A stretch of 44,053 nucleotides of DNA from a virus (lineage: Duplodnaviria > Heunggongvirae > Uroviricota > Caudoviricetes): IMG/VR virus record IMGVR_UViG_2597489870_000002, positions 1 through 44,053 of that record. One strand, given 5' to 3'. The translations under genes were made by a program, and so were the position numbers. The notes beneath the pieces were generated by a model. That model made no database searches. It was not told the origin of the DNA and was given only the letters and a program-made list of their open reading frames with translations. Shown piece by piece: positions 5,698 to 40,848 of the stretch. The number at the start of each line of letters is the position of its first letter. Positions within the stretch are counted from its first letter, which is position 1.

Positions 5698-5776
5698 GTT
5701 ACCGTTGAGGTAATGATTATGCGTATTTGGTTTGGTGTCAATAGATATGAGTTAAAAAAATTACCCTTAAGGTAAT
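5698..5776. promoter_or_regulatory. Two ATTACC-N5-GGTAAT operators flanking a putative leftward early promoter
   Basis: GTTACCGTTGAGGTAAT (5698-5714) and a perfect ATTACCCTTAAGGTAAT (5760-5776). Between them, GGTGTCAATAG (5734-5744) has a complement containing TTGACA. An ATTTGGTT box lies at 5725-5732. Confidence 0.6.
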
Positions 5777-5832: not shown

Positions 5833-6417
5833 TTATTGTTTGTTTTTTTCGTTCTGGTTGATGACAAATTCAATGTAACTTTCGATCTTTGCTTTCTCGG
5901 TTTCGGGTAACAATGCGTAGCGCGAGCGGTCATAGTTGATGGTCGCAGGGTCGTGCGGGTGAATCAGTAATTCATAGCCGTGACGCCCGAATGCGGATGC
6001 AACATTCTCCAGGGTGGAAATGGAAACGCTGACCTCATTGTTTAACAGGCGGCTGATTGTCACCTGGGCGACGCCGGATGCGCGGTGAAGTTTTCCCTGT
6101 GTTGAAAGGTCGCGGCTTTCGCTCATCCAGCGTTCCAGGTTGTGAGCCGCCAGCTGACCTATATCGCTCGGGCCGACAGGCTGAAAACCTTCCTGAGAAA
6201 GCGAGCGATCGATATCAAGCCAGTTACGGGGTTTATTGGCGGCAGCTTCAATTTTTCGCGCAACCTGGTCGCCGATAACCTTCTTGCCAAGAGCCCAGCG
6301 GTTTACCAGATTTGCCTGAGTTCCAAGTTTTTCTGCCATCCGCGTCTGAACACCATTGAATTCACGGTCGATCAAGTCGTTGAGATTTTGCCTGCGGACG
6401 TCCTGGATACTTTTCAT
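5833..6417 (-). CDS. Prophage repressor candidate with two XRE-type HTH domains and no obvious S24 peptidase domain
   Basis: 194 aa. HTH1 is QTRMAEKLGTQANLVNRWALGKK and HTH2 is LHRASGVAQVTISRLLNNEVSVSISTLENVASAF. Divergent from the cro-like gene across an operator-rich spacer. Confidence 0.7.
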   Translation of the reverse strand: MKSIQDVRRQNLNDLIDREFNGVQTRMAEKLGTQANLVNRWALGKKVIGDQVARKIEAAANKPRNWLDIDRSLSQEGFQPVGPSDIGQLAAHNLERWMSESRDLSTQGKLHRASGVAQVTISRLLNNEVSVSISTLENVASAFGRHGYELLIHPHDPATINYDRSRYALLPETEKAKIESYIEFVINQNEKNKQ

Positions 6418-6471: not shown

Positions 6472-6536
6472 ATTACCCAACAGGTAAATGCACCCCATAG
6501 GTAACTATCCTTGATTTTTGTTACCTTATGGGTGAA
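6472..6536. promoter_or_regulatory. Immunity-region operators (three palindrome copies)
   Basis: ATTACCCAACAGGTAAA (6472-6488) abuts TGCACCCCATAGGTAAC (6489-6505). GTTACCTTATGGGTGAA (6520-6536) lies between a TTGTTA -35-like hexamer and a TATTAT -10-like hexamer for the rightward gene. Confidence 0.6.
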
Positions 6537-6571: not shown

Positions 6572-6802
6572 ATGAGCGATAACGGACATTTCGATTTCAA
6601 AAAGCACTGGCTTGCACTTACTCCGGATGAGCGTGAAGCCTTCGCACAGGAAGCCGGAACGACGAGTCACTATATCCAGACTCACTTAACAGGTAAGCGC
6701 AAAATGCCAGGTAAGGTATTGATGAATGGGCTTTTTAAAGCCTGTAAAACAAGACAATGGCTGCGCTCAAAAGCAGAACTGGCATACTTCTTCTACTCAT
6801 GA
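6572..6802 (+). CDS. Cro-like small DNA-binding protein
   Basis: 76 aa, divergent from the repressor. AQEAGTTSHYIQTHLTGKRKMP is HTH-like. Confidence 0.6.
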   Translation: MSDNGHFDFKKHWLALTPDEREAFAQEAGTTSHYIQTHLTGKRKMPGKVLMNGLFKACKTRQWLRSKAELAYFFYS

Positions 6803-15541: not shown

Positions 15542-15618
15542 TGGTGCGGCATGCAGGATTCGAACCTGCGGCCAACCGCTTAGAAGGCGGTTGCTCTATC
15601 CAACTGAGCTAATGCCAC
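15542..15618 (-). tRNA. tRNA-Arg (anticodon UCU), argU-like, with CCA encoded
   Basis: Hand-folded cloverleaf: GTGGCAT-TA-GCTC-AGTTGGATA-GAGC-A-ACCGC-CTTCTAA-GCGGT-TGGCC-GCAGG-TTCGAAT-CCTGC-ATGCCGC-A-CCA. Confidence 0.9.
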
Positions 15619-18893: not shown

Positions 18894-19880
18894 ATGGCTG
18901 TTAAAGGCTTAACTGCGCTAACGCTGGCTGACTGGGGTAAGCGCGTCGATCCAAACGGGAAAGTCGATAAGATTATCGAGCTTCTCGGTCAAACTAACCC
19001 GATCCTTCAGGATATGCCTTTTGTCGAAGGGAACCTTCCTACGGGACACCGAACCACCATTCGTTCTGGTTTACCTTCAGCTACCTGGCGTTTGCTGAAC
19101 TATGGCGTACAGCCAAGCAAATCAACCACAGTGCAGGTCACCGATTCCGTTGGCATGCTGGAAACCTATGCTGAAGTCGATAAGTCACTGGCTGATCTGA
19201 ACGGCAATACCGCCGAATTCCGCCTGTCTGAAGACCGAGCATTTATTGAAGCGATGAATCAGCAGATGGCGCAGACGCTGTTTTATGGTGATTCCAGCGT
19301 TAACCCTCAGCAGTTTATGGGACTGTCCTCCCGCTATTCCAGCCTGTCTGCGGGTAATGCTCAGAACATCATTGATGCTGGTGGCACGGGTACAGATAAC
19401 ACCTCAATCTGGTTAGTGGTGTGGGGCGAAAACACCGTGCATGGCATCTTCCCGAAAGGGCAGAAGGCTGGCATCCAGATGGAAGATAAAGGCCAGGTGA
19501 CACTGGAAGATGCTAATGGCGGCAAGTACGAAGGCTACCGTACCCATTACAAATGGGACAACGGACTTGCTCTGCGTGACTGGCGTTATGTTGTTCGCAT
19601 TGCAAACATCGATGTCAGCAATCTTTCAGAACCTTCCTCTGCCGCAAATATTGCGAAGTTGATGGTTAAAGCACTACATCGCATTCCAAACCGTGGCATG
19701 GGCCGCCCGGTGTTCTACATGAACCGCACTGTAGGCCAGACTCTTGATCTGCAGTCTCTGGAGAAAACATCCCTGGCTATCAGCGTAAAAGAGACAGAAG
19801 GCGAGTGGTGGACTTCATTCCGTGGTGTACCAATCCGTGAAACTGATGCGCTTCTGGAAACAGAAGCCCGCGTGGTGTAA
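18894..19880 (+). CDS. Major capsid protein (by size and position)
   Basis: About 328 aa, after the scaffold gene, with SD GAGGAAA upstream. A stem-loop at 19897-19916 follows the stop. Confidence 0.7.
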   Translation: MAVKGLTALTLADWGKRVDPNGKVDKIIELLGQTNPILQDMPFVEGNLPTGHRTTIRSGLPSATWRLLNYGVQPSKSTTVQVTDSVGMLETYAEVDKSLADLNGNTAEFRLSEDRAFIEAMNQQMAQTLFYGDSSVNPQQFMGLSSRYSSLSAGNAQNIIDAGGTGTDNTSIWLVVWGENTVHGIFPKGQKAGIQMEDKGQVTLEDANGGKYEGYRTHYKWDNGLALRDWRYVVRIANIDVSNLSEPSSAANIAKLMVKALHRIPNRGMGRPVFYMNRTVGQTLDLQSLEKTSLAISVKETEGEWWTSFRGVPIRETDALLETEARVV

Positions 19881-19931
19881 CGCCTGTTATTAACCTGTGG
19901 GTCGTAACAGACCCACTAATGGAGAAAGAAG

Positions 19932-20369
19932 ATGATCACCGACAAACTGTTGATGTTCTCCGAAGCACAGGCGGTAACTGATACCGCGGCTTCTACTGAC
20001 GTAATCGATCTCGGTCCAATTGATGGGAAACGTCGTGATATCGGCGTGGGTTACCCGCTTGAGTTTTGGGCGCTGGTTAACACAGCCGCCGCAGCAAGCG
20101 GTGATGCAACTGTAAACATCCAGTTGCAGACGAGTGAGGATAACAGCTCATGGACCACTATTTATGATAGTGGTGCACTGGCAAAGACCGCCCTGACAGC
20201 AGGTAAACGAGTTGTTTCTGCAAAGGTGCCTGCCGGTGTTCAGCGATATCTGCGTGTTAACTACTCCGTCGCAACTGGCCCACTAACGGCTGGCGAATTC
20301 ACTGCTGGTATCAGTCTTGATGTTGATGCCAATACGCCGTATCCGATCCGCTCAAAAGTAACTGGTTAA
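19932..20369 (+). CDS. Capsid decoration/cement protein candidate (Bbp16-like?)
   Basis: 145 aa directly after the capsid gene, with SD GGAGAAAG upstream. The family assignment is from memory only. Confidence 0.45.
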   Translation: MITDKLLMFSEAQAVTDTAASTDVIDLGPIDGKRRDIGVGYPLEFWALVNTAAAASGDATVNIQLQTSEDNSSWTTIYDSGALAKTALTAGKRVVSAKVPAGVQRYLRVNYSVATGPLTAGEFTAGISLDVDANTPYPIRSKVTG

Positions 20370-33476: not shown

Positions 33477-33540
33477 AGTACGCTATTCACCTGCAATCTG
33501 TACAGAATTATTTAAAGGCACATCCCTGTGCCGCCGCCCG

Positions 33541-34233
33541 TCAGAAGAACCCTGCCTTGTCGTTGATGTACTCCGCGTGCGTCTGGATATCACGCAGGCA
33601 TTTGCTCACACCGACGATGTAGCAGAACATGGTGGTCAGTTCCGCCGCCGCGCCCGATACATCATGCCCGTCGTCCTGCAACTGGTTTAGCAGATTCATC
33701 AGCAGTGAGTTCTCCGTCAGGCCGAGAACACCAGACGGCGAGTGAATCAGGCTACGGTAGCCTGGCTTCAGTGGGGCACTGTAGGTTTTGTTCTCTATCT
33801 TCATTGCCTGCATCACTGCTGATGCTGTGGCGTTGGCTACCTGGTCGGCAACCATCTTTATGCGCTCTTCCTGCGGGAGCGAGTTTTTAATGTAGCTTCC
33901 GGTGCGGCGGATCTGAGGAAGAACCTCACCTGTAACCCATTCAAGAAATCTGAATGCTCTCGTTCCCTCAGTCATTGCCTCTTTGCAACGCAGAATAAGG
34001 ATGTAGAGACCTGATTCTGAAACGATGGATAGTTCTTGTATTCCACCAGGGGTCTGTATTGAATACAGCCCCTTTTTGTTCCAGCCTTTTTTATCAAGTT
34101 TTCTCGCTTGTGTAACATCAATATTCAAAGCATTGCACACATCTTTGGTGACAAACCAAGGTTCTCCGTCAATCATGAACATACGGATCTGGCAGGATGA
34201 CTCAAAGGAAAAGATGGAAGGTTTGGTATTCAT
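33541..34233 (-). CDS. Bro-N/KilA-N-type antirepressor
   Basis: ATG at 34233 (MNTKPSIFSFESSCQIRMFMIDGEPWFVTKDVCNALNI = BRO-N pattern). The C-terminal roughly 75 aa are paralogous to ORF 35379..35636. Confidence 0.75.
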   Translation of the reverse strand: MNTKPSIFSFESSCQIRMFMIDGEPWFVTKDVCNALNIDVTQARKLDKKGWNKKGLYSIQTPGGIQELSIVSESGLYILILRCKEAMTEGTRAFRFLEWVTGEVLPQIRRTGSYIKNSLPQEERIKMVADQVANATASAVMQAMKIENKTYSAPLKPGYRSLIHSPSGVLGLTENSLLMNLLNQLQDDGHDVSGAAAELTTMFCYIVGVSKCLRDIQTHAEYINDKAGFF

Positions 34234-34499
34234 GGCGATCACCTTTGTAGTTAGGTTAATCACCACCGCTGAGACCAATCAGATGGTGGTGAACTGTGCA
34301 GAGTTGGTCTTACCGGCTACAAAGGAACCCGGCGCACCTTTCGGTGCCCCCACACAGCCCACCATAGAATAGGTGCGCTTTACACATAAAAAAACCGCTT
34401 ATGCGGCGTATGTGCCTCTGTAGTAATCCGGGAGACCAATCCCGGCACTGGATTTTGCCAGTGCCTGATTACTATGGCACAAGAGGAGTGCGATGTAAA

Positions 34500-34609
34500 T
34501 TTACCGCAAAGGTAATGATAAGCGAGGAGAAATATCAAAATCAACCGTATTTGGTTGATGGAGTTTAACGCTTGATCACCTGAAAGCAAGATATTACCTT
34601 TAAGGTAAT
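34500..34609. promoter_or_regulatory. Two palindromes and an ATTTGGTT box in the ant / 242-aa divergent region
   Basis: TTTACCGCAAAGGTAAT (34500-34516). TCAACCGTATTTGGTTGA (34541-34558), an inverted repeat containing ATTTGGTT (34549-34556). Perfect ATTACCTTTAAGGTAAT (34593-34609). Confidence 0.55.
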
Positions 34610-34628
34610 GTTATTGTGAGGAAAAGCA

Positions 34629-35357
34629 ATGGAAGTTTTCTGGATAGTTGTTGGTGTGGTTGCGGTGATTATTTACGTTATCAACCAGAACAAGACTAAG
34701 ATCTCTGATCGTACGGTCGTTAATCAGAACAAAACGATAAAGACCGAAGATGGGGAGATAACGATTAATCGTACACAGGTGATAGACCGCACCTCCACTC
34801 AGTTTCACAAAGCTGGAGGTGATGCGCCTAATATTTCCGTACCTCCTGATTATGATAGTGCGGTAATCCAGACATATTATAAACAGCAGGAGTTAGCAAA
34901 AGAGAGGCAACTGATTCAGCCAAAGCCATTTACAGCAGAGCTGCCACCTGGTGTGTCAACGCGTCCGACATATCATGGAAGATTCCCTGGTGATGACATA
35001 TCGTCTCAGTCACCTAAAAAAGCACTTCAGGTAGTATCAGAGCCAGCAAGAATACCTTCTGTGTCGCCGCCAAAAGAAGAATCAGCTAACAGAGTTTCAA
35101 GTGGTAGCAAGCAGTGTTTGCGATGCAGAATAAACCTTCCATATGAAAAATTCAGGAAATCTTCAAAAAATCCAGATGGATTGACTAAGTGGTGTGCAAG
35201 GTGTCTCGATGGCCCAAAGAATACACGCCATATGAAGTGGTGCCCAATTTGTAATGTCCGCAGAAAACGAACCAGCTTTTACCCTAATAATCAAAATGCG
35301 GATGGCTTAATGGCATGGTGCAAAACGTGCTGGGACGAGCACAAAGCGAAACGATAG
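34629..35357 (+). CDS. Membrane-anchored protein with two C-terminal zinc-ribbon repeats
   Basis: 242 aa. N-terminal TM MEVFWIVVGVVAVIIYVI. Repeats CLRCRINLPYEKFRKSSKNPDGLTKWCARC and CPICNVRRKRTSFYPNNQNADGLMAWCKTC. Confidence 0.7.
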   Translation: MEVFWIVVGVVAVIIYVINQNKTKISDRTVVNQNKTIKTEDGEITINRTQVIDRTSTQFHKAGGDAPNISVPPDYDSAVIQTYYKQQELAKERQLIQPKPFTAELPPGVSTRPTYHGRFPGDDISSQSPKKALQVVSEPARIPSVSPPKEESANRVSSGSKQCLRCRINLPYEKFRKSSKNPDGLTKWCARCLDGPKNTRHMKWCPICNVRRKRTSFYPNNQNADGLMAWCKTCWDEHKAKR

Positions 35358-35380
35358 GCCGCTCTTGCGGCCTTTTCTTT
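35356..35380 (+). terminator. Rho-independent terminator
   Basis: AGGCCGC-TCTT-GCGGCCT followed by TTTCTTT. Confidence 0.8.
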
Positions 35381-35636
35381 ATGTGGTTTGTTTTCGTAAT
35401 TGTTCAGCACAATAGTCGAGATGTGTTTGCAGATCCTGCATAGACATCTGTGAGCTGGTGACGTAGTTAATCAGTGCAGTCAGTTCGGCAAGTGGGCCAT
35501 CGACATTAAATCCATCCTTATCGAGATCCCGGAGTAATTTCATCAAGTGCGATCCCTCCACCAGTGACCTGACGCCTCCCGGCGTGTGAATCCTTTCGGT
35601 AAATCCGTCTTCCAGTGGATAGTGATACTGCTGCAT
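35379..35636 (-). CDS. Small antirepressor-like protein, paralog of the Bro-N antirepressor C-terminal domain
   Basis: ATG at 35636 after GGGGAAGA (the track start is a TTG at 35654). About 40% identity by eye over about 77 aa: IHTPGGVRSLVEGSHLMKLLRDLDKDGFNVDGPLAELT..DLQTH versus IHSPSGVLGLTENSLLMNLLNQLQDDGHDVSGAAAELT..DIQTH. Confidence 0.7.
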   Translation of the reverse strand: MQQYHYPLEDGFTERIHTPGGVRSLVEGSHLMKLLRDLDKDGFNVDGPLAELTALINYVTSSQMSMQDLQTHLDYCAEQLRKQTT

Positions 35637-35655
35637 CTTATCTTCCCCATGCAAT

Positions 35656-35675
35656 AACTGTATATTTATACAGTA
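35656..35675. promoter_or_regulatory. LexA (SOS) box
   Basis: AACTGTATATTTATACAGTA matches 18/20 positions of TACTGTATATATATACAGTA, with CTGT-N8-ACAG intact. It lies 20-39 nt upstream of the 85-aa gene's start. Confidence 0.8.
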
Positions 35676-35711
35676 TCAAATAATTTGTTTGCTATCCAGC
35701 ACGTTTTGCGA

Positions 35712-35783
35712 ATCACCTGAAAGGTAATATCTGTTCGTATTTATGGGTTATCTATCCATATGTGGTTTTTCAGGTAATAGAAT
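35712..35783 (+). promoter_or_regulatory. Palindrome, ATGTGGTT box and -10-like element upstream of the tailspike gene
   Basis: ATCACCTGAAAGGTAAT (35712-35728). ATGTGGTT (35760-35767), N5, GGTAAT (35773-35778), overlapping TAGAAT (35778-35783). Confidence 0.55.
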
Positions 35784-36635
35784 AACCGGATATGCGGCGC
35801 AACGGGTGCTGCGACTATCTGGAGATTTAACATGACGGTCTCAACCGAAGTTGACCACAACGAATACACAGGTAACGGCGTTACGACATCATTTCCTTAT
35901 ACCTTTAGGGTTTTCAATAAATCTGATCTGGTAGTGCAGGTGATTGACCCTGACGAGAATATCACTGTGCTGGCTCTTGATACTGATTACACGGTGACGG
36001 GGGCTGGAGGATATACTGGCGGGAATGTCATCCTCACAACTGCTCTGGAGAATGGATTTCGTATTTCGATAGCACGTGAACTCCCAGTTACGCAGGAAAC
36101 CGATCTGCGCAATCAAGGCAAGTTCTTTGCAGAGGTGCATGAGGATGCTTTTGATAAGTTAACTATGCTGCTTCAACAGGTTAGAAGTTGGTTTAGTCTG
36201 GCGCTGCGCAAGCCGTCGTTTGTCGCAAACTACTATGATGCTCTTGGTAACTACATCCGCAATCTTCGTGACCCGTCACGTCCTCAGGATGCGGCCACCA
36301 AGAATTATGTCGACTCACTGGCAAGCATTAATCTGTCTAAAACGCTGAGAATGCCAGAGGCAGTACCAGAGCTTCCAAGCGCTGAGCTGAGAAAAAACAA
36401 AATTGTAGCAATGGATGATTCAGGAAATCCTATCATGGTTCTGCCTGAATCTGGTTCCGCTTCAGATGTAATGATTCAACTTGCATCAAGCAATGGTTTA
36501 AAGTTTATAGGTGATGTTCAGTCTGTTATAAAATTAAATGATGCTATCGGAAACATAGGTGATAAGATTTTTTTAAAGTCTTATGTTGAAGGTGAGAATA
36601 AAGGTGGTGGGATTCTTGTTGCTGTTGATAACTCA

Positions 36636-36643
36636 CTATTAGC
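36636..36643. repeat. Target-site duplication, left copy
   Basis: CTATTAGC, identical to 39343-39350. Confidence 0.9.
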
Positions 36644-36696
36644 GTAACCGGCTCATTTAAACCGTCTGGTCTGTTTCCTCCGGCTCTACAAAAATA

Positions 36697-37374
36697 ATGT
36701 CCATCATTTTTAATGGACACTATCGTATGAAACACCGGACCTGGATCACTGAAGCTTTACGTCTTCACTTTGAAGAACATTTACCCCGGGTTGTGGCCGG
36801 GCGTCGCCTGGGTGTACCAAAATCAACAGTTTGTAGTATGTTCGTGCGCTTTCGGAGAGCTGGCCTTTCGTGGCCTTTGCCCGCAGGCATGTCGGAGCAG
36901 GAACTTGATGCCTGCCTTTACGGACAATTTTCCACGGTACCAGTCGTACGTCCTGAAAGCACCGTTATATCCGAAGCCCCCGTGGTAAAAAAACGTCCCC
37001 GGCGGCCCAACTTCCCTTATGAGTTTAAAATCGCCTTAGTGGAGCAGTCACTGCAGCCCGGAGCCTGTGTGGCGCAGATCGCCCGGGAAAACGGAATCAA
37101 CGATAACCTGCTCTTCAACTGGCGCCATCAATACCGGAAAGGTGGCCTGCTGCCTTCCGGAAAAAATATGCCGGCACTGCTTCCCGTGACGTTAACGCCG
37201 GAGCCGGATAATAAAATCCCGGCCCCCGCACAGGAACCAGAGCAGATAAATACACCGTCCGACAGTCTGTGTTGTGAGCTGGTTCTGCCGGCCGGAACTC
37301 TCAGGCTTAAAGGTAAACTGACGCCGGCGTTATTACAGACACTTATCCGCGAAATAAAAGGGAGCAGCCACTGA
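36697..37374 (+). CDS. tnpA: IS66-family accessory protein TnpA (orfA)
   Basis: RRPNFPYEFKIALVEQSLQPGACVAQIARENGINDNLLFNWRHQYRKG. The start is uncertain (an alternative ATG lies at 36727). Confidence 0.75.
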   Translation: MSIIFNGHYRMKHRTWITEALRLHFEEHLPRVVAGRRLGVPKSTVCSMFVRFRRAGLSWPLPAGMSEQELDACLYGQFSTVPVVRPESTVISEAPVVKKRPRRPNFPYEFKIALVEQSLQPGACVAQIARENGINDNLLFNWRHQYRKGGLLPSGKNMPALLPVTLTPEPDNKIPAPAQEPEQINTPSDSLCCELVLPAGTLRLKGKLTPALLQTLIREIKGSSH

Positions 37375-37721
37375 TGATATCTCTCCCTGCAGGTTCGCGT
37401 ATCTGGCTGGTTGCAGGTATCACCGATATGCGAAATGGCTTTAACGGCCTGGCATCAAAAGTTCAGAACGTCCTGAAGGATGACCCGTTCTCCGGACACC
37501 TGTTCATCTTCCGCGGACGCCGGGGTGACCAGATAAAAGTGTTGTGGGCTGACAGTGACGGACTGTGCCTCTTCACCAAACGCCTGGAGCGGGGCCGCTT
37601 CGTCTGGCCAGTCACCCGTGACGGCAAGGTGCACCTTACTCCGGCTCAGTTATCCATGCTTCTTGAAGGTATCAACTGGAAGCACCCGAAACGAACGGAA
37701 CGCGCTGGAATCCGCATATAA
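37374..37721 (+). CDS. tnpB: IS66-family TnpB (orfB)
   Basis: 115 aa. ..RIWLVAGITDMRNGFNGLASKVQ..DPFSGHLFIFRGRRGDQIKVLWAD is the classic IS66 orf2. ATGA-type coupling to orfA. Confidence 0.9.
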   Translation: MISLPAGSRIWLVAGITDMRNGFNGLASKVQNVLKDDPFSGHLFIFRGRRGDQIKVLWADSDGLCLFTKRLERGRFVWPVTRDGKVHLTPAQLSMLLEGINWKHPKRTERAGIRI

Positions 37722-37740
37722 CCCGTTGTAAAGTGAGGAT

Positions 37741-39312
37741 ATGGACACCTCACTTGCTCATGAGAACGCCCGCCTGCGGGCACTGTTGCAGACGCAACAG
37801 GACACCATCCGCCAGATGGCTGAATACAACCGCCTGCTCTCACAGCGGGTGGCGGCTTATGCTTCCGAAATCAACCGGCTGAAGGCGCTGGTTGCGAAAC
37901 TGCAACGTATGCAGTTCGGTAAAAGCTCAGAAAAACTTCGTGCAAAAACCGAACGGCAGATACAGGAAGCACAGGAGCGAATCAGCGCACTTCAGGAAGA
38001 AATGGCGGAAACGCTGGGTGAGCAATATGACCCGGTACTGCCATCCGCCCTGCGCCAGTCTTCAGCCCGTAAACCGTTACCGGCCTCACTTCCCCGTGAA
38101 ACCCGGGTTATCCGGCCGGAAGAGGAATGCTGTCCTGCCTGTGGTGGTGAACTCAGTTCTCTGGGATGTGATGTGTCAGAGCAACTGGAGCTTATCAGCA
38201 GCGCCTTTAAGGTTATCGAAACACAACGTCCGAAACAGGCCTGTTGCCGGTGCGACCATATCGTGCAGGCACCAGTACCTTCAAAACCCATTGCACGCAG
38301 TTATGCCGGAGCGGGGCTTCTGGCCCATGTTGTCACCGGGAAATATGCAGACCATCTGCCGTTATACCGCCAGTCAGAAATATACCGTCGTCAGGGAGTG
38401 GAGCTGAGCCGTGCCACACTGGGGCGCTGGACAGGTGCTGTTGCTGAACTGCTGGAGCCGCTGTATGACGTCCTGCGCCAGTATGTGCTGATGCCCGGTA
38501 AAGTCCATGCTGATGATATCCCCGTCCCGGTCCAGGAGCCGGGCAGCGGTAAAACCCGGACAGCCCGGCTGTGGGTCTACGTCCGTGATGACCGTAACGC
38601 CGGTTCACAGATGCCCCCGGCGGTCTGGTTCGCGTACAGTCCGGACCGGAAAGGTATCCATCCACAAAATCACCTGGCCGGTTACAGCGGTGTGCTTCAG
38701 GCCGATGCTTACGGTGGTTACCGGGCGTTATACGAATCCGGCAGAATAACGGAAGCCGCGTGTATGGCTCATGCCCGGAGAAAAATCCACGATGTGCATG
38801 CAAGAGCGCCCACCTACATCACCACGGAAGCCCTGCAGCGTATCGGTGAACTGTATGCCATCGAGGCAGAGGTCCGGGGCTGTTCAGCAGAACAGCGTCT
38901 GGCGGCAAGAAAAGCCAGAGCCGCGCCACTGATGCAGTCACTGTATGACTGGATACAGCAACAGATGAAAACACTGTCGCGTCACTCAGATACGGCAAAA
39001 GCGTTCGCATACCTGCTGAAACAGTGGGATGCACTGAACGTGTACTGCAGTAATGGCTGGGTGGAAATCGACAACAACATCGCAGAGAACGCCTTACGGG
39101 GAGTGGCCGTAGGCCGGAAAAACTGGATGTTCGCGGGTTCCGACAGCGGTGGTGAACATGCGGCGGTGTTGTACTCGCTGATCGGCACATGCCGTCTGAA
39201 CAATGTGGAGCCAGAAAAGTGGCTGCGTTACGTCATTGAACATATCCAGGACTGGCCGGCAAACCGGGTACGCGATCTGTTGCCCTGGAAAGTTGATCTG
39301 AGCTCTCAGTAA
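37741..39312 (+). CDS. tnpC: IS66-family transposase TnpC (orfC)
   Basis: 523 aa with an N-terminal leucine-zipper-like coil, a CPACGG zinc motif and a DDE-type core (..LQADAYGGY..). Confidence 0.9.
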
Positions 39313-39342
39313 ATATCAATACGGTTCTGACGAGTCGCTTAC

Positions 39343-39350
39343 CTATTAGC
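39343..39350. repeat. Target-site duplication, right copy
   Basis: CTATTAGC. Confidence 0.9.
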
Positions 39351-40848
39351 AGATGATATAGTTATATTTAATGGTAATGGAGTGAAATGGAGACGTCTAT
39401 TTTTTACTGGTGAAGTAACTGTATTCGACGCTGGTTATACAGGCTCTGGCGACATTGCTCAATATATAAACAAAATAAATTCAGCAGGATATGACTGCGT
39501 TATTCCATGCTCAGGTGATTTTTCGAGTGCTATTGCAATAGATGTAAGCAAGGGCAGCGTAAGGGGGGTAAATAAATGCATACTTACCGAGATTCCAGGC
39601 GTATCTGGAGATTATGCGCTGACGATTGTTAACTCAAATACAGATTATGCTGACCGTGATGCAATTAATGCTACAGCTATCATTGACGGAGTAGCATTTA
39701 ATTTCATGGGCACCAAAAAAGTTGGTTTGGGAGGGGTAGGTACTGGGGATCTTTCAGAGTTGCGGATCAGTAACGTGGGTATGATTGGTTCCGCTGGTGT
39801 AGAATTCCTGGAAAATTCATATCGTTTGATGTTCGATAAATTTGCTATATCGAGAAGCTTTACCAACACTATCATTTTTAACTCGCCAGCAAATTCTGGT
39901 GAGGTTATTAAATTCAGTCACGGTTGGATGGTTGATAATGGTGGACCGCTAACATTTAATAACGGTCAATTTATTTTTGACTCATGCTCAATGCCTGCCG
40001 GGAAGAAAGTGGGTTATTTAGAGCCAAGTGTAATTATGCATGGCAACGCTCACGTTGTTTATGCTAACGGTAATGTCGAATTCCAGCCCGGGCAGAGCTT
40101 TGTAGCCTTTGTTGTGGATGGCAGTTCAAGGCTGTCAATCAAGGACACCACCATACTTACGCCTACTGGTTATTCAGCCATACCAATAATCGCAAATGAT
40201 GATGGGGTTGTGTCACTGACAAACTGCTCTCTTCCATTATATGACCAGAAGGATCTGGCTGCTGGCGCTGCTACTCGTCAAGTGATTGGTGGAAATAGTA
40301 AGAAGGTTATCTCCCGTGGATGCTACCCTCGGGCAGGTTTTATAACATCCAACTGGGATAAGGGTAATATAGTTAGTCCATTTATCAACGCGCTAAGTAA
40401 TGGTAGTGGTCAGTTCTCAAACTATTCCAACTGGGTTTTGGCACAAAAAGGTACAGGTGTCGTAACTGCGGGTACTGATACGGATGTCCCTAACACTGTT
40501 ATGTTTTCCAGATCACTGTATGTGAATATTCCATCGGTTGGGGCTGCTGCTGATTTTTATCAGGAATGCTTAGAATGCGAGCCAGGGCGGTATTTCCAGT
40601 TAGGTTTCTGGGCTAAAAATCAAGTTACAACAATTTCTGGAATTGAATTTTTTGATAAAGAAGGTAACTCAGTACAAGGTAAAGGAACATTTACAATTCC
40701 AACTGGTTCTACATTTAATTTCTACGCATTAATAGATGTTGTTCCTCCTGGTGCAAGTAAGGTTAGGATTGGATTTGATGTATCAGGATCGGTTGGTTCT
40801 CTTCATATCCATAATGCTATTTATGGATTGATATAAACACTAAATTTC

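Follow-up and report, generated by a model that had tools for sequence, protein, structure and literature searches.

A LexA box upstream of an ant gene in an epsilon15-like prophage of Escherichia coli H10407, and a candidate RNA-gated paralog

How might DNA damage release a prophage whose immunity repressor shows no self-cleavage domain? The question is raised by a LexA (SOS) box that lies immediately upstream of a small minus-strand gene in the IMG/VR virus record IMGVR_UViG_2597489870_000002 (positions 1 to 44,053; this stretch of 44,053 nucleotides, the whole of the DNA analysed, is referred to here as the window). A sequence-only reading of the window had proposed that DNA damage leads to LexA cleavage, then to expression of the 85-residue product of the small gene and finally to inactivation of a 194-residue repressor, a scheme that is the published mechanism of the orthologous Rep-Ant pair of the Salmonella phage SPC32H. 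The locus very probably represents the ant gene and LexA operator of an epsilon15-like prophage, forming the same switch as that characterised in SPC32H. Since the orthologous Rep/Ant/LexA mechanism has already been published, the central claim is not novel; the sequence-only reading did not recognise this direct precedent. The core finding is a re-derivation from raw sequence of a switch whose genetics were worked out in 2013 and whose structure followed in 2016, and is small as a discovery. The evidence presented here consists of sequence features, the orthology of both proteins to a crystallised pair, the conservation of the box at a nearly constant position, and the joint occurrence of Rep with Ant, while LexA control and Rep disassembly are taken from the SPC32H literature and we infer the same interactions for this prophage.

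The small ant gene, its LexA box and the repressor

The features on which the switch depends are the following.

35379..35636, minus strand: ant, encoding an 85-residue antirepressor, the orthologue of SPC32H Ant; ATG at 35636
35656..35675: LexA (SOS) box AACTGTATATTTATACAGTA, which on the minus strand reads TACTGTATAAATATACAGTT and agrees with the consensus at 18 of 20 positions
35670..35698, minus strand: putative ant promoter, -35 TGGATA (35698-35693), 17-nt spacer, -10 TACTGT (35675-35670)
35712..35728: Rep-type palindrome ATCACCTGAAAGGTAAT, 13 nt upstream of the putative ant -35
5833..6417, minus strand (the open reading frame, ORF, exists on that strand only): rep, encoding the 194-residue immunity repressor, which is homologous to SPC32H Rep
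6472..6488: Rep-type palindrome between rep and a divergent cro-like gene (6572-6802)
5698-5714 and 5760-5776: pair of Rep-type palindromes 62 bp apart, downstream of rep

By its sequence the window is an epsilon15-like prophage (Uetakevirus, phiV10/TL-2011b group) of enterotoxigenic Escherichia coli (ETEC) H10407, because window positions 33500-35900 are 100% identical to the H10407 chromosome (NC_017633.1) and the 601 bases around the finding share 95-98% identity with the E. coli phages TL-2011b, phiV10 and vB_EcoP_ZX5 (hereafter ZX5), and 76-77% identity with Salmonella and Enterobacter phages of the genus Uetakevirus. Some part of region 33500-35900 is present in 544 of 5426 complete E. 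coli genomes (about one in ten), and at least 80% of it in 109.

The 85-residue protein matches chain E ('Anti-repressor protein') of PDB entry 5D50 over residues 2-85 (E 1.3e-47) and is 89.4% identical to SPC32H Ant and 96.5% identical to phiV10 gp24; judged by sequence, it is the orthologue of SPC32H Ant. Entry 5D50 is the Rep-Ant complex of SPC32H, and 5D4Z is the C-terminal domain of Rep alone (residues 92-198). In the GenBank records of SPC32H and SPC32N the orthologues are called ant and rep and the synteny is the same, ant being divergent from the tailspike gene in the window as in SPC32H. The practical value of the identification lies in annotation: RefSeq continues to list the H10407 product as a 'hypothetical protein', the label it also has in phiV10, TL-2011b and most relatives, and the protein matches phrog_450 and no Pfam or NCBIfam family at E-values up to 0.1 or 0.01. 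A sub-threshold Pfam match to DUF724 was judged spurious.

The box had been described as an 18/20 match to the LexA consensus lying 20-39 nt upstream of the 85-residue gene, and both statements hold. When the palindromic 20-mer TACTGTATATATATACAGTA was used as consensus and up to three mismatches were allowed, the box was the sole site in the 44-kb window, and none of 100 shuffled sequences used as a control yielded any. The ORF begins with an ATG at 35636 on the minus strand, which places the box 20-39 nt upstream of it, with 19 nt between the end of the box and the gene. The ant-tailspike intergenic region was aligned for nine phages from four host genera, and the window box aligns with that of SPC32H. 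The best box was also scored in twelve loci from E. coli, Salmonella, Enterobacter and Klebsiella; in all twelve it matches 15-18 of the 20 consensus positions, and 18-22 nt separate its end from the start codon of ant. The CTGT and ACAG arms of the box are conserved at 97%, compared with 75% in the remainder of the intergenic region. The Klebsiella-type loci (L008 and L009) and locus L015 have ATGT rather than CTGT as the left arm and match 15-17 positions, and their LexA control may be weaker or different.

SPC32N and SPC32H differ at two positions in 1052 nt, one of them a C-to-A change by which ATACAG, at the right-hand ACAG arm of the box, becomes ATAAAG; this is in agreement with the published mutant as reported. 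It is reportedly known of this pair that SPC32N is two nucleotides off SPC32H, with one change in a LexA site overlapping the ant promoter, and the change in the LexA site is said to make Ant constitutive. In the window, TGGATA and TACTGT separated by 17 nt form a candidate ant promoter, read from blocks conserved between phages, and the -10 so assigned falls inside the LexA box, which would thereby overlap the promoter. The sequence CTGGATAG is kept in most of the nine aligned phages, and TACTGT in the seven that have a canonical box.

The repressor had been characterised as two helix-turn-helix (HTH) domains without an S24/LexA-like autocleavage domain. In Pfam the protein matches HTH_3 (residues 106-147) and, weakly, a YdaS-type HTH (residues 21-61); the Pfam search found no Peptidase_S24 at E-values up to 0.1, and NCBIfam adds no S24/LexA-like family. 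The protein matches 5D50 chain A ('Repressor') over residues 1-190 (E 4e-42) and 5D4Z (E 4e-20), and is 100% identical to phiV10 gp40. The distributed palindromes reported for the window are likewise borne out, with 16 ATTACC-N5-GGTAAT sites at up to two mismatches compared with 1.08 expected; SPC32H has 18 and phiV10 15, clustered around rep. The cro-like gene that faces rep across the palindrome at 6472-6488 encodes a product matching phrog_35, transcriptional repressor. Upstream of ant, the palindrome at 35712-35728 is kept in all nine aligned phages at a fixed distance from the LexA box, and in the epsilon15 GenBank record the equivalent palindrome upstream of the ant homologue is annotated as a repressor binding site.

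Rep-type palindromes also form pairs in three phages, each with a spacing of exactly 62 bp or about six turns of the helix (window 5698/5760 and 8803/8865; SPC32H 33603/33665 and 35971/36033; phiV10 31952/32014 and 35069/35131), a spacing that would suit a tetrameric repressor touching two operators at once.

In several Salmonella prophages, according to a review, SOS induction and LexA self-cleavage give rise to an antirepressor that inhibits the lytic repressor by protein contact (PMC7380047, citing Kim and Ryu 2013). For SPC32H, a second paper describes a Rep tetramer that binds DNA and an Ant tetramer that binds two Rep dimers and breaks the Rep tetramer (PMC9638917, citing Kim et al. 2016). 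In a lysogen carrying the prophage described here, host LexA would occupy the box at 35656-35675, over the putative ant -10, and keep ant silent. The 194-residue Rep is predicted to combine an N-terminal HTH domain for DNA binding with a C-terminal domain for oligomerisation and to lack a protease domain; like SPC32H Rep, it would bind as a tetramer, its sites being the ATTACC-N5-GGTAAT palindromes. DNA damage would activate RecA and induce self-cleavage of LexA, whereupon ant would be transcribed, and Ant would bind Rep and break the DNA-binding tetramer, derepressing the lytic genes.

The likeness to the SPC32H switch extends to the genus, the position of ant divergent from the tailspike gene, the 89% identity and small size of Ant (∼86 residues in the SPC32H-type switch), the distance of the LexA box from the start codon, and the palindromes. 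Rep, too, is homologous from end to end, shares the two-domain plan and likewise lacks an S24 domain. The window differs in its host, E. coli, and in a Rep that is only 43% identical; SPC32H and epsilon15, moreover, both lack the second, RNA-controlled gene with an Ant-like domain that is found in the window. Tum of coliphage 186, GfoA/GfhA of the Gifsy phages and AntC of N15 are similar in that a small protein held by LexA acts against a non-cleavable repressor (PMC7380047, PMC3121763). No sequence relationship to them was detected, the window Ant having no match in Pfam or NCBIfam, Tum/DinI-like families included, and the mode reported for SPC32H Ant is disassembly of the Rep tetramer (PMC9638917). 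The 85-residue protein would thus work like the Tum/DinI-type antirepressors and, as far as its sequence indicates, is not one of them.

The larger paralog and its RNA leader

Some 1.1 kb from ant, on the same strand, there is a second gene whose product contains an Ant-like domain; it is preceded by an RNA leader. The features of this region are given below.

33541..34233, minus strand: Bro-N::Ant-like protein of 230 residues, in which Bro-N spans residues 16-106 and the Ant-like domain spans residues 149-226 (33556-33789)
34242..34278, minus strand: downstream C4 targets, a2 UUGGUCU (34278-34272) and b2 CUACAAAGG (34250-34242)
34282..34369, minus strand: C4 antisense RNA (RF01695), full-length model, 78.6 bits against a gathering score of 45; loop b' CCUUUGUAG (34325-34317) and junction a' AGACCAA (34310-34304)
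34388..34464, minus strand: isrK-like RNA (RF01394), 73 bits against 50, equivalent to the a1/b1 target element; a1 UUGGUCU (34439-34433) and b1 CUACAGAGG (34423-34415)
34471..34516, minus strand: putative isrK promoter, -35 TTTACA (34499-34494), 17 nt, -10 CATAGT (34476-34471) with TG
34593..34609: perfect Rep-type palindrome ATTACCTTTAAGGTAAT, 93 bp from that at 34500-34516 and 20 nt upstream of a 242-residue ORF

The Bro-N domain (PF02498) scores 51.4 bits against a gathering cutoff of 25.6. The relationship of the C-terminal domain to the small protein, put at about 40% identity by eye in the sequence-only reading, is confirmed by BLASTP, which aligns residues 2-75 of the 85-residue protein with residues 149-222 of the larger one (31 of 74 identical, 42%, ungapped, E 1e-15); both proteins match phrog_450. 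The C-terminal domain also matches 5D50 chain E (E 1.6e-13), and it is on these two sequence comparisons that its homology to Ant is based. An AlphaFold2 monomer model of the domain reached only moderate confidence on a shallow alignment (predicted local distance difference test score 69.6, predicted template modelling score 0.46), and a Foldseek search of the PDB with this model of what is probably an obligate tetramer, built as a monomer, gave no match. A third copy of the Ant-like domain was looked for on account of a report of '3 places' in TL-2011b, and none was found in the window.

The mini Ant and a fused Ant-like domain occur together in the E. coli group, in the Enterobacter phage Tyrion and in three Klebsiella phages; the Salmonella members (epsilon15, SPC32H) carry the mini Ant only. 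When 1.84 billion representative proteins were searched with a profile, the Ant-like domain turned up in only 59 clusters (50% identity), and in the longer proteins that contain it the N-terminal domain is Bro-N, AntA or Phage_pRha. Where AntA and Rha examples occur the order is the same, namely tailspike gene, LexA box, mini ant, palindrome beside a TTTACA promoter, isrK, C4 and fusion gene, and every context of the domain that was examined is a Uetakevirus-like prophage. A constant C-terminal domain joined to three exchangeable N-terminal domains fits a portable repressor-targeting module, in keeping with the earlier proposal that the 85-residue protein is a stand-alone copy of such a module.

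The sequence-only reading had further assigned the larger gene to a different control because palindromes lie upstream of it. This distinction does not hold, since the palindrome at 35712-35728 also lies upstream of ant, in nine of nine phages. What does set the larger gene apart, as far as its sequence tells, is an isrK/C4 antisense-RNA leader and the lack of a LexA box, the sole site in the window at up to three mismatches being that at 35656-35675. An Rfam scan of the leader returned two RNAs above their gathering scores, C4 and the isrK-like RNA, and the c4-a1b1 model reached 38.4 bits, under its own gathering score. The isrK promoter-like site was called by a promoter scan; the isrK model begins at 34464, 7 nt past the -10, and ends in an intrinsic terminator (34407-34394). 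A Rep-type palindrome (34500-34516) abuts the -35, an arrangement shared with ZX5 and loci L014 and L015.

Between the RNA and the antirepressor gene the sole ORF is one of 28 codons (34279-34365) inside C4, in a position like that of orf45 in Gifsy-1. The C4 loop CCUUUGUAG can form a 9-nt duplex with CUACAAAGG, the b2 element that covers the Shine-Dalgarno sequence of the Bro-N gene 9-17 nt before its ATG (34233), and also with CUACAGAGG in isrK, and AGACCAA can form a 7-nt duplex with UUGGUCU both at 34278-34272 and in the isrK hairpin. In a cross-pairing matrix the longest contiguous duplex failed to separate the C4 types, as unrelated stem sequences pair too, and the types were therefore compared by their explicit loop and target sequences, as follows.

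Window and Tyrion: a' AGACCAA with UUGGUCU; b' CCUUUGUAG with CUACAAAGG
TL-2011b, phiV10 and ZX5: a' ACGCCAA with UUGGCGU; b' CCUUUUAG with CUAAAAGG
Locus L014: a' as in the window; b' CCACUUAG with CUAAGUGG

The isrK and C4 RNAs were found in phiV10, TL-2011b, ZX5 and Tyrion as well as in the window, and neither was found in SPC32H. Changes in the C4 loop are matched in both target copies each time (five phages and L014), giving at least three specificities, and because loops and targets co-vary between phages a working C4 system is supported. Gene callers tend to swallow these RNAs: a 319-residue call in L015 (10001-10960) takes in isrK and C4, which give it a spurious extra N-terminus, and an 'ash family protein' coding sequence of ZX5 (1259-1372) overlaps C4.

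Weighing the alternatives

Several observations weigh against the identification of the locus with the SPC32H switch. The window Ant is 89% identical to its SPC32H counterpart and Rep only 43%, for which reason the contact between them in the E. coli group is transferred from SPC32H by analogy; either Rep has diverged around a contact surface that is kept, or Ant tolerates an unusual degree of variation in Rep. The ant promoter was not called by the consensus promoter scan. Control of ant may not be exerted by LexA alone, because a Rep-type palindrome (35712-35728) also lies upstream of the gene. The sole study of an E. coli member, on ZX5, tested the Bro-N protein and not the mini Ant (PMC9782041). 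Finally, the H10407 prophage, even when induced, would probably give no infectious particles, because an insertion sequence (IS) element interrupts its tailspike gene.

The ZX5 study also lends support to an unlikely alternative, in which the Bro-N::Ant-like protein is the operative antirepressor and the 85-residue protein is redundant or a co-assembling modulator, SPC32H Ant being tetrameric. The repressor of ZX5 (ORF21) is identical to the window Rep, and its ORF4 is 80% identical to the window Bro-N protein overall and 98.9% identical over the last 90 residues. When the Bro-N protein of ZX5 was overexpressed, prophage counts fell from 1e9 to 1e6 and repressor mRNA decreased by 75%, and overexpression of the repressor abolished free phage (Li et al. 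2022, Pathogens, PMC9782041), phenotypes that fit an antirepressor and a repressor; the C4 specificity type of ZX5 is not that of the window. The paper makes no mention of the small ant gene, the LexA box, the C4 and isrK RNAs or the homology to SPC32H Ant (PMC9782041). The mini Ants and the fused domain share 22-23 invariant positions, and, where a comparison could be made, in a few cases, the divergence of the fused domain roughly follows that of Rep (Tyrion 79% against 78% for Rep, Klebsiella 53% against 45%), while the divergence of the mini Ant is out of step with Rep (Salmonella 88% against 42%). Against this, the Salmonella members epsilon15 and SPC32H have the mini Ant only and are inducible through it, and the LexA box and mini ant gene are kept in every member examined. 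Furthermore, the Ant-like domain of the Bro-N gene lies in two frames in phiV10 and in O157 typing phages 9 and 10 (in phiV10 at 19551-20230, as gp23 of 194 residues and gp22 of 29 residues), which suggests that the large protein is dispensable for a viable phage; the split may be either a frameshift or a sequencing error.

Less probable still is an Ant that no longer recognises its own diverged Rep and acts mainly in trans on the repressors of other prophages, in the manner of Gifsy crosstalk. The full-length identity of Rep to SPC32H Rep is 42.7%, with 52% in the N-terminal domain and only 38.5% in the C-terminal domain, beside an Ant that is 89% identical, and antirepressor crosstalk is documented for Salmonella (PMC3121763, PMC7380047). 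Rep homologues and the Ant-like domain, however, co-occur in nearly the same set of phage records (36 and 35, respectively), all of them Uetakevirus, and the Ant-like family is small (the 59 clusters noted above), with all examined contexts being Uetakevirus-like prophages.

It is hardly credible that the match to the LexA box arose by chance, or that the site acts on the divergent tailspike gene instead: the core CTGT-N8-ACAG by itself is not significant in the window (3 sites against 0.7 expected) and the box does sit in a divergent intergenic region common to both genes, but the full 20-mer is unique and absent from the 100 shuffles, keeps almost the same distance from the start of ant in all four host genera, lies 157 nt from the tailspike ATG, and is the place of the one-base SPC32N change, with its reportedly constitutive Ant. 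The other two core sites (19895 and 38880) were dismissed, having GC-rich spacers and no consensus flanks.

One repressor, two antirepressors, and neighbouring features

The switch of the SPC32H type being the preferred reading of the small gene, the less-charted and more useful part of the locus is the larger paralog under small antisense-RNA control. The Bro-N::Ant-like gene most likely provides a separate input to the same repressor. It would be transcribed from the promoter that abuts a Rep-type palindrome, through an isrK-like leader with a terminator, and its translation would be gated by C4 RNA, the loop of which would pair with the ribosome-binding site as in P1 immI and Gifsy-1 isrK-anrP. 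An RNA-gated paralog acting on the same Rep is plausible. A broader generalisation is tentative, and somewhat less likely to be right than wrong: in the E. coli/Enterobacter/Klebsiella branch, one non-cleavable repressor might be the target of two antirepressors that share a Rep-binding domain and respond to different signals. The mini Ant would then report DNA damage through LexA, and the Bro-N, AntA or Rha fusion would report infection or immunity status through an IsrK/C4 gate having at least three mutually distinct pairing specificities, as in the heteroimmunity of P1 and P7 immI. Because the promoter of the fusion gene abuts a Rep-type palindrome, inactivation of Rep by the mini Ant could feed forward into the second antirepressor and latch the switch, and the mini Ant and the fusion protein might co-assemble through their homologous domains. 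If both proteins do act on the same Rep, the locus would be a compact natural case of SOS and RNA-based immunity inputs converging on one repressor by way of a shared, portable protein module.

For the paralog, the closest models in layout are P1/P7 immI and the isrK-orf45-anrP region of Gifsy-1, which likewise present an a1/b1 element (isrK) with a terminator, C4, and a2/b2 on a ribosome-binding site. Between P1 and P7 the same kind of co-variation of C4 loop and target is the basis of their immI heteroimmunity. In phage P1, C4 RNA and Icd control Ant (PMC8201110); in Gifsy-1, the mRNA made when transcription runs past the IsrK terminator is inactive, and the short IsrK activates translation of the antirepressor anrP (PMC4825925). 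The window differs from both in that the antirepressor gene has b2 on its own Shine-Dalgarno sequence, the only ORF upstream being that of 28 codons inside C4, and also in the C-terminal domain of its antirepressor, which is of the SPC32H Ant type, and in the Rep-type palindrome that abuts the promoter.

The Ant of P22 immI, controlled by Mnt, Arc and sar, offers a further parallel, with an antirepressor gene beside the tailspike gene in a short-tailed temperate phage and an antisense-RNA layer. The window lacks mnt and arc genes, and the P22_AR_N match of its Bro-N protein is below threshold (17.6 bits against 30.7). P22 is still SOS-inducible without ant (PMC7380047).

The remaining features of the neighbourhood are these.

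34629-35357, plus strand: 242-residue ORF, located between ant and the isrK promoter
35356..35373: GC-rich terminator-like hairpin flanked by the stop codon of ant and the 3' end of the 242-residue ORF
35832-36516: tailspike remnant
∼36517-39381: IS66-family element (ISCro1), with tnpA (36697-37374), tnpB (37374-37721) and a transposase gene (37741-39312)
15545-15618, minus strand: tRNA gene, 71 bits

The 242-residue ORF product, phrog_6762 (function category unknown), has a hydrophobic N-terminus and Cys-rich C-terminal repeats like endonuclease VII/HNH zinc ribbons, and its gene looks like an inserted accessory gene, because phiV10 and ZX5 are without it at that place. The IS66-family element breaks the tailspike gene, which is marked as a pseudogene in RefSeq for the H10407 prophage. 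SPC32H and phiV10 have a tRNA gene at the same position as the window, and in the SPC32H record it is tRNA-Arg.

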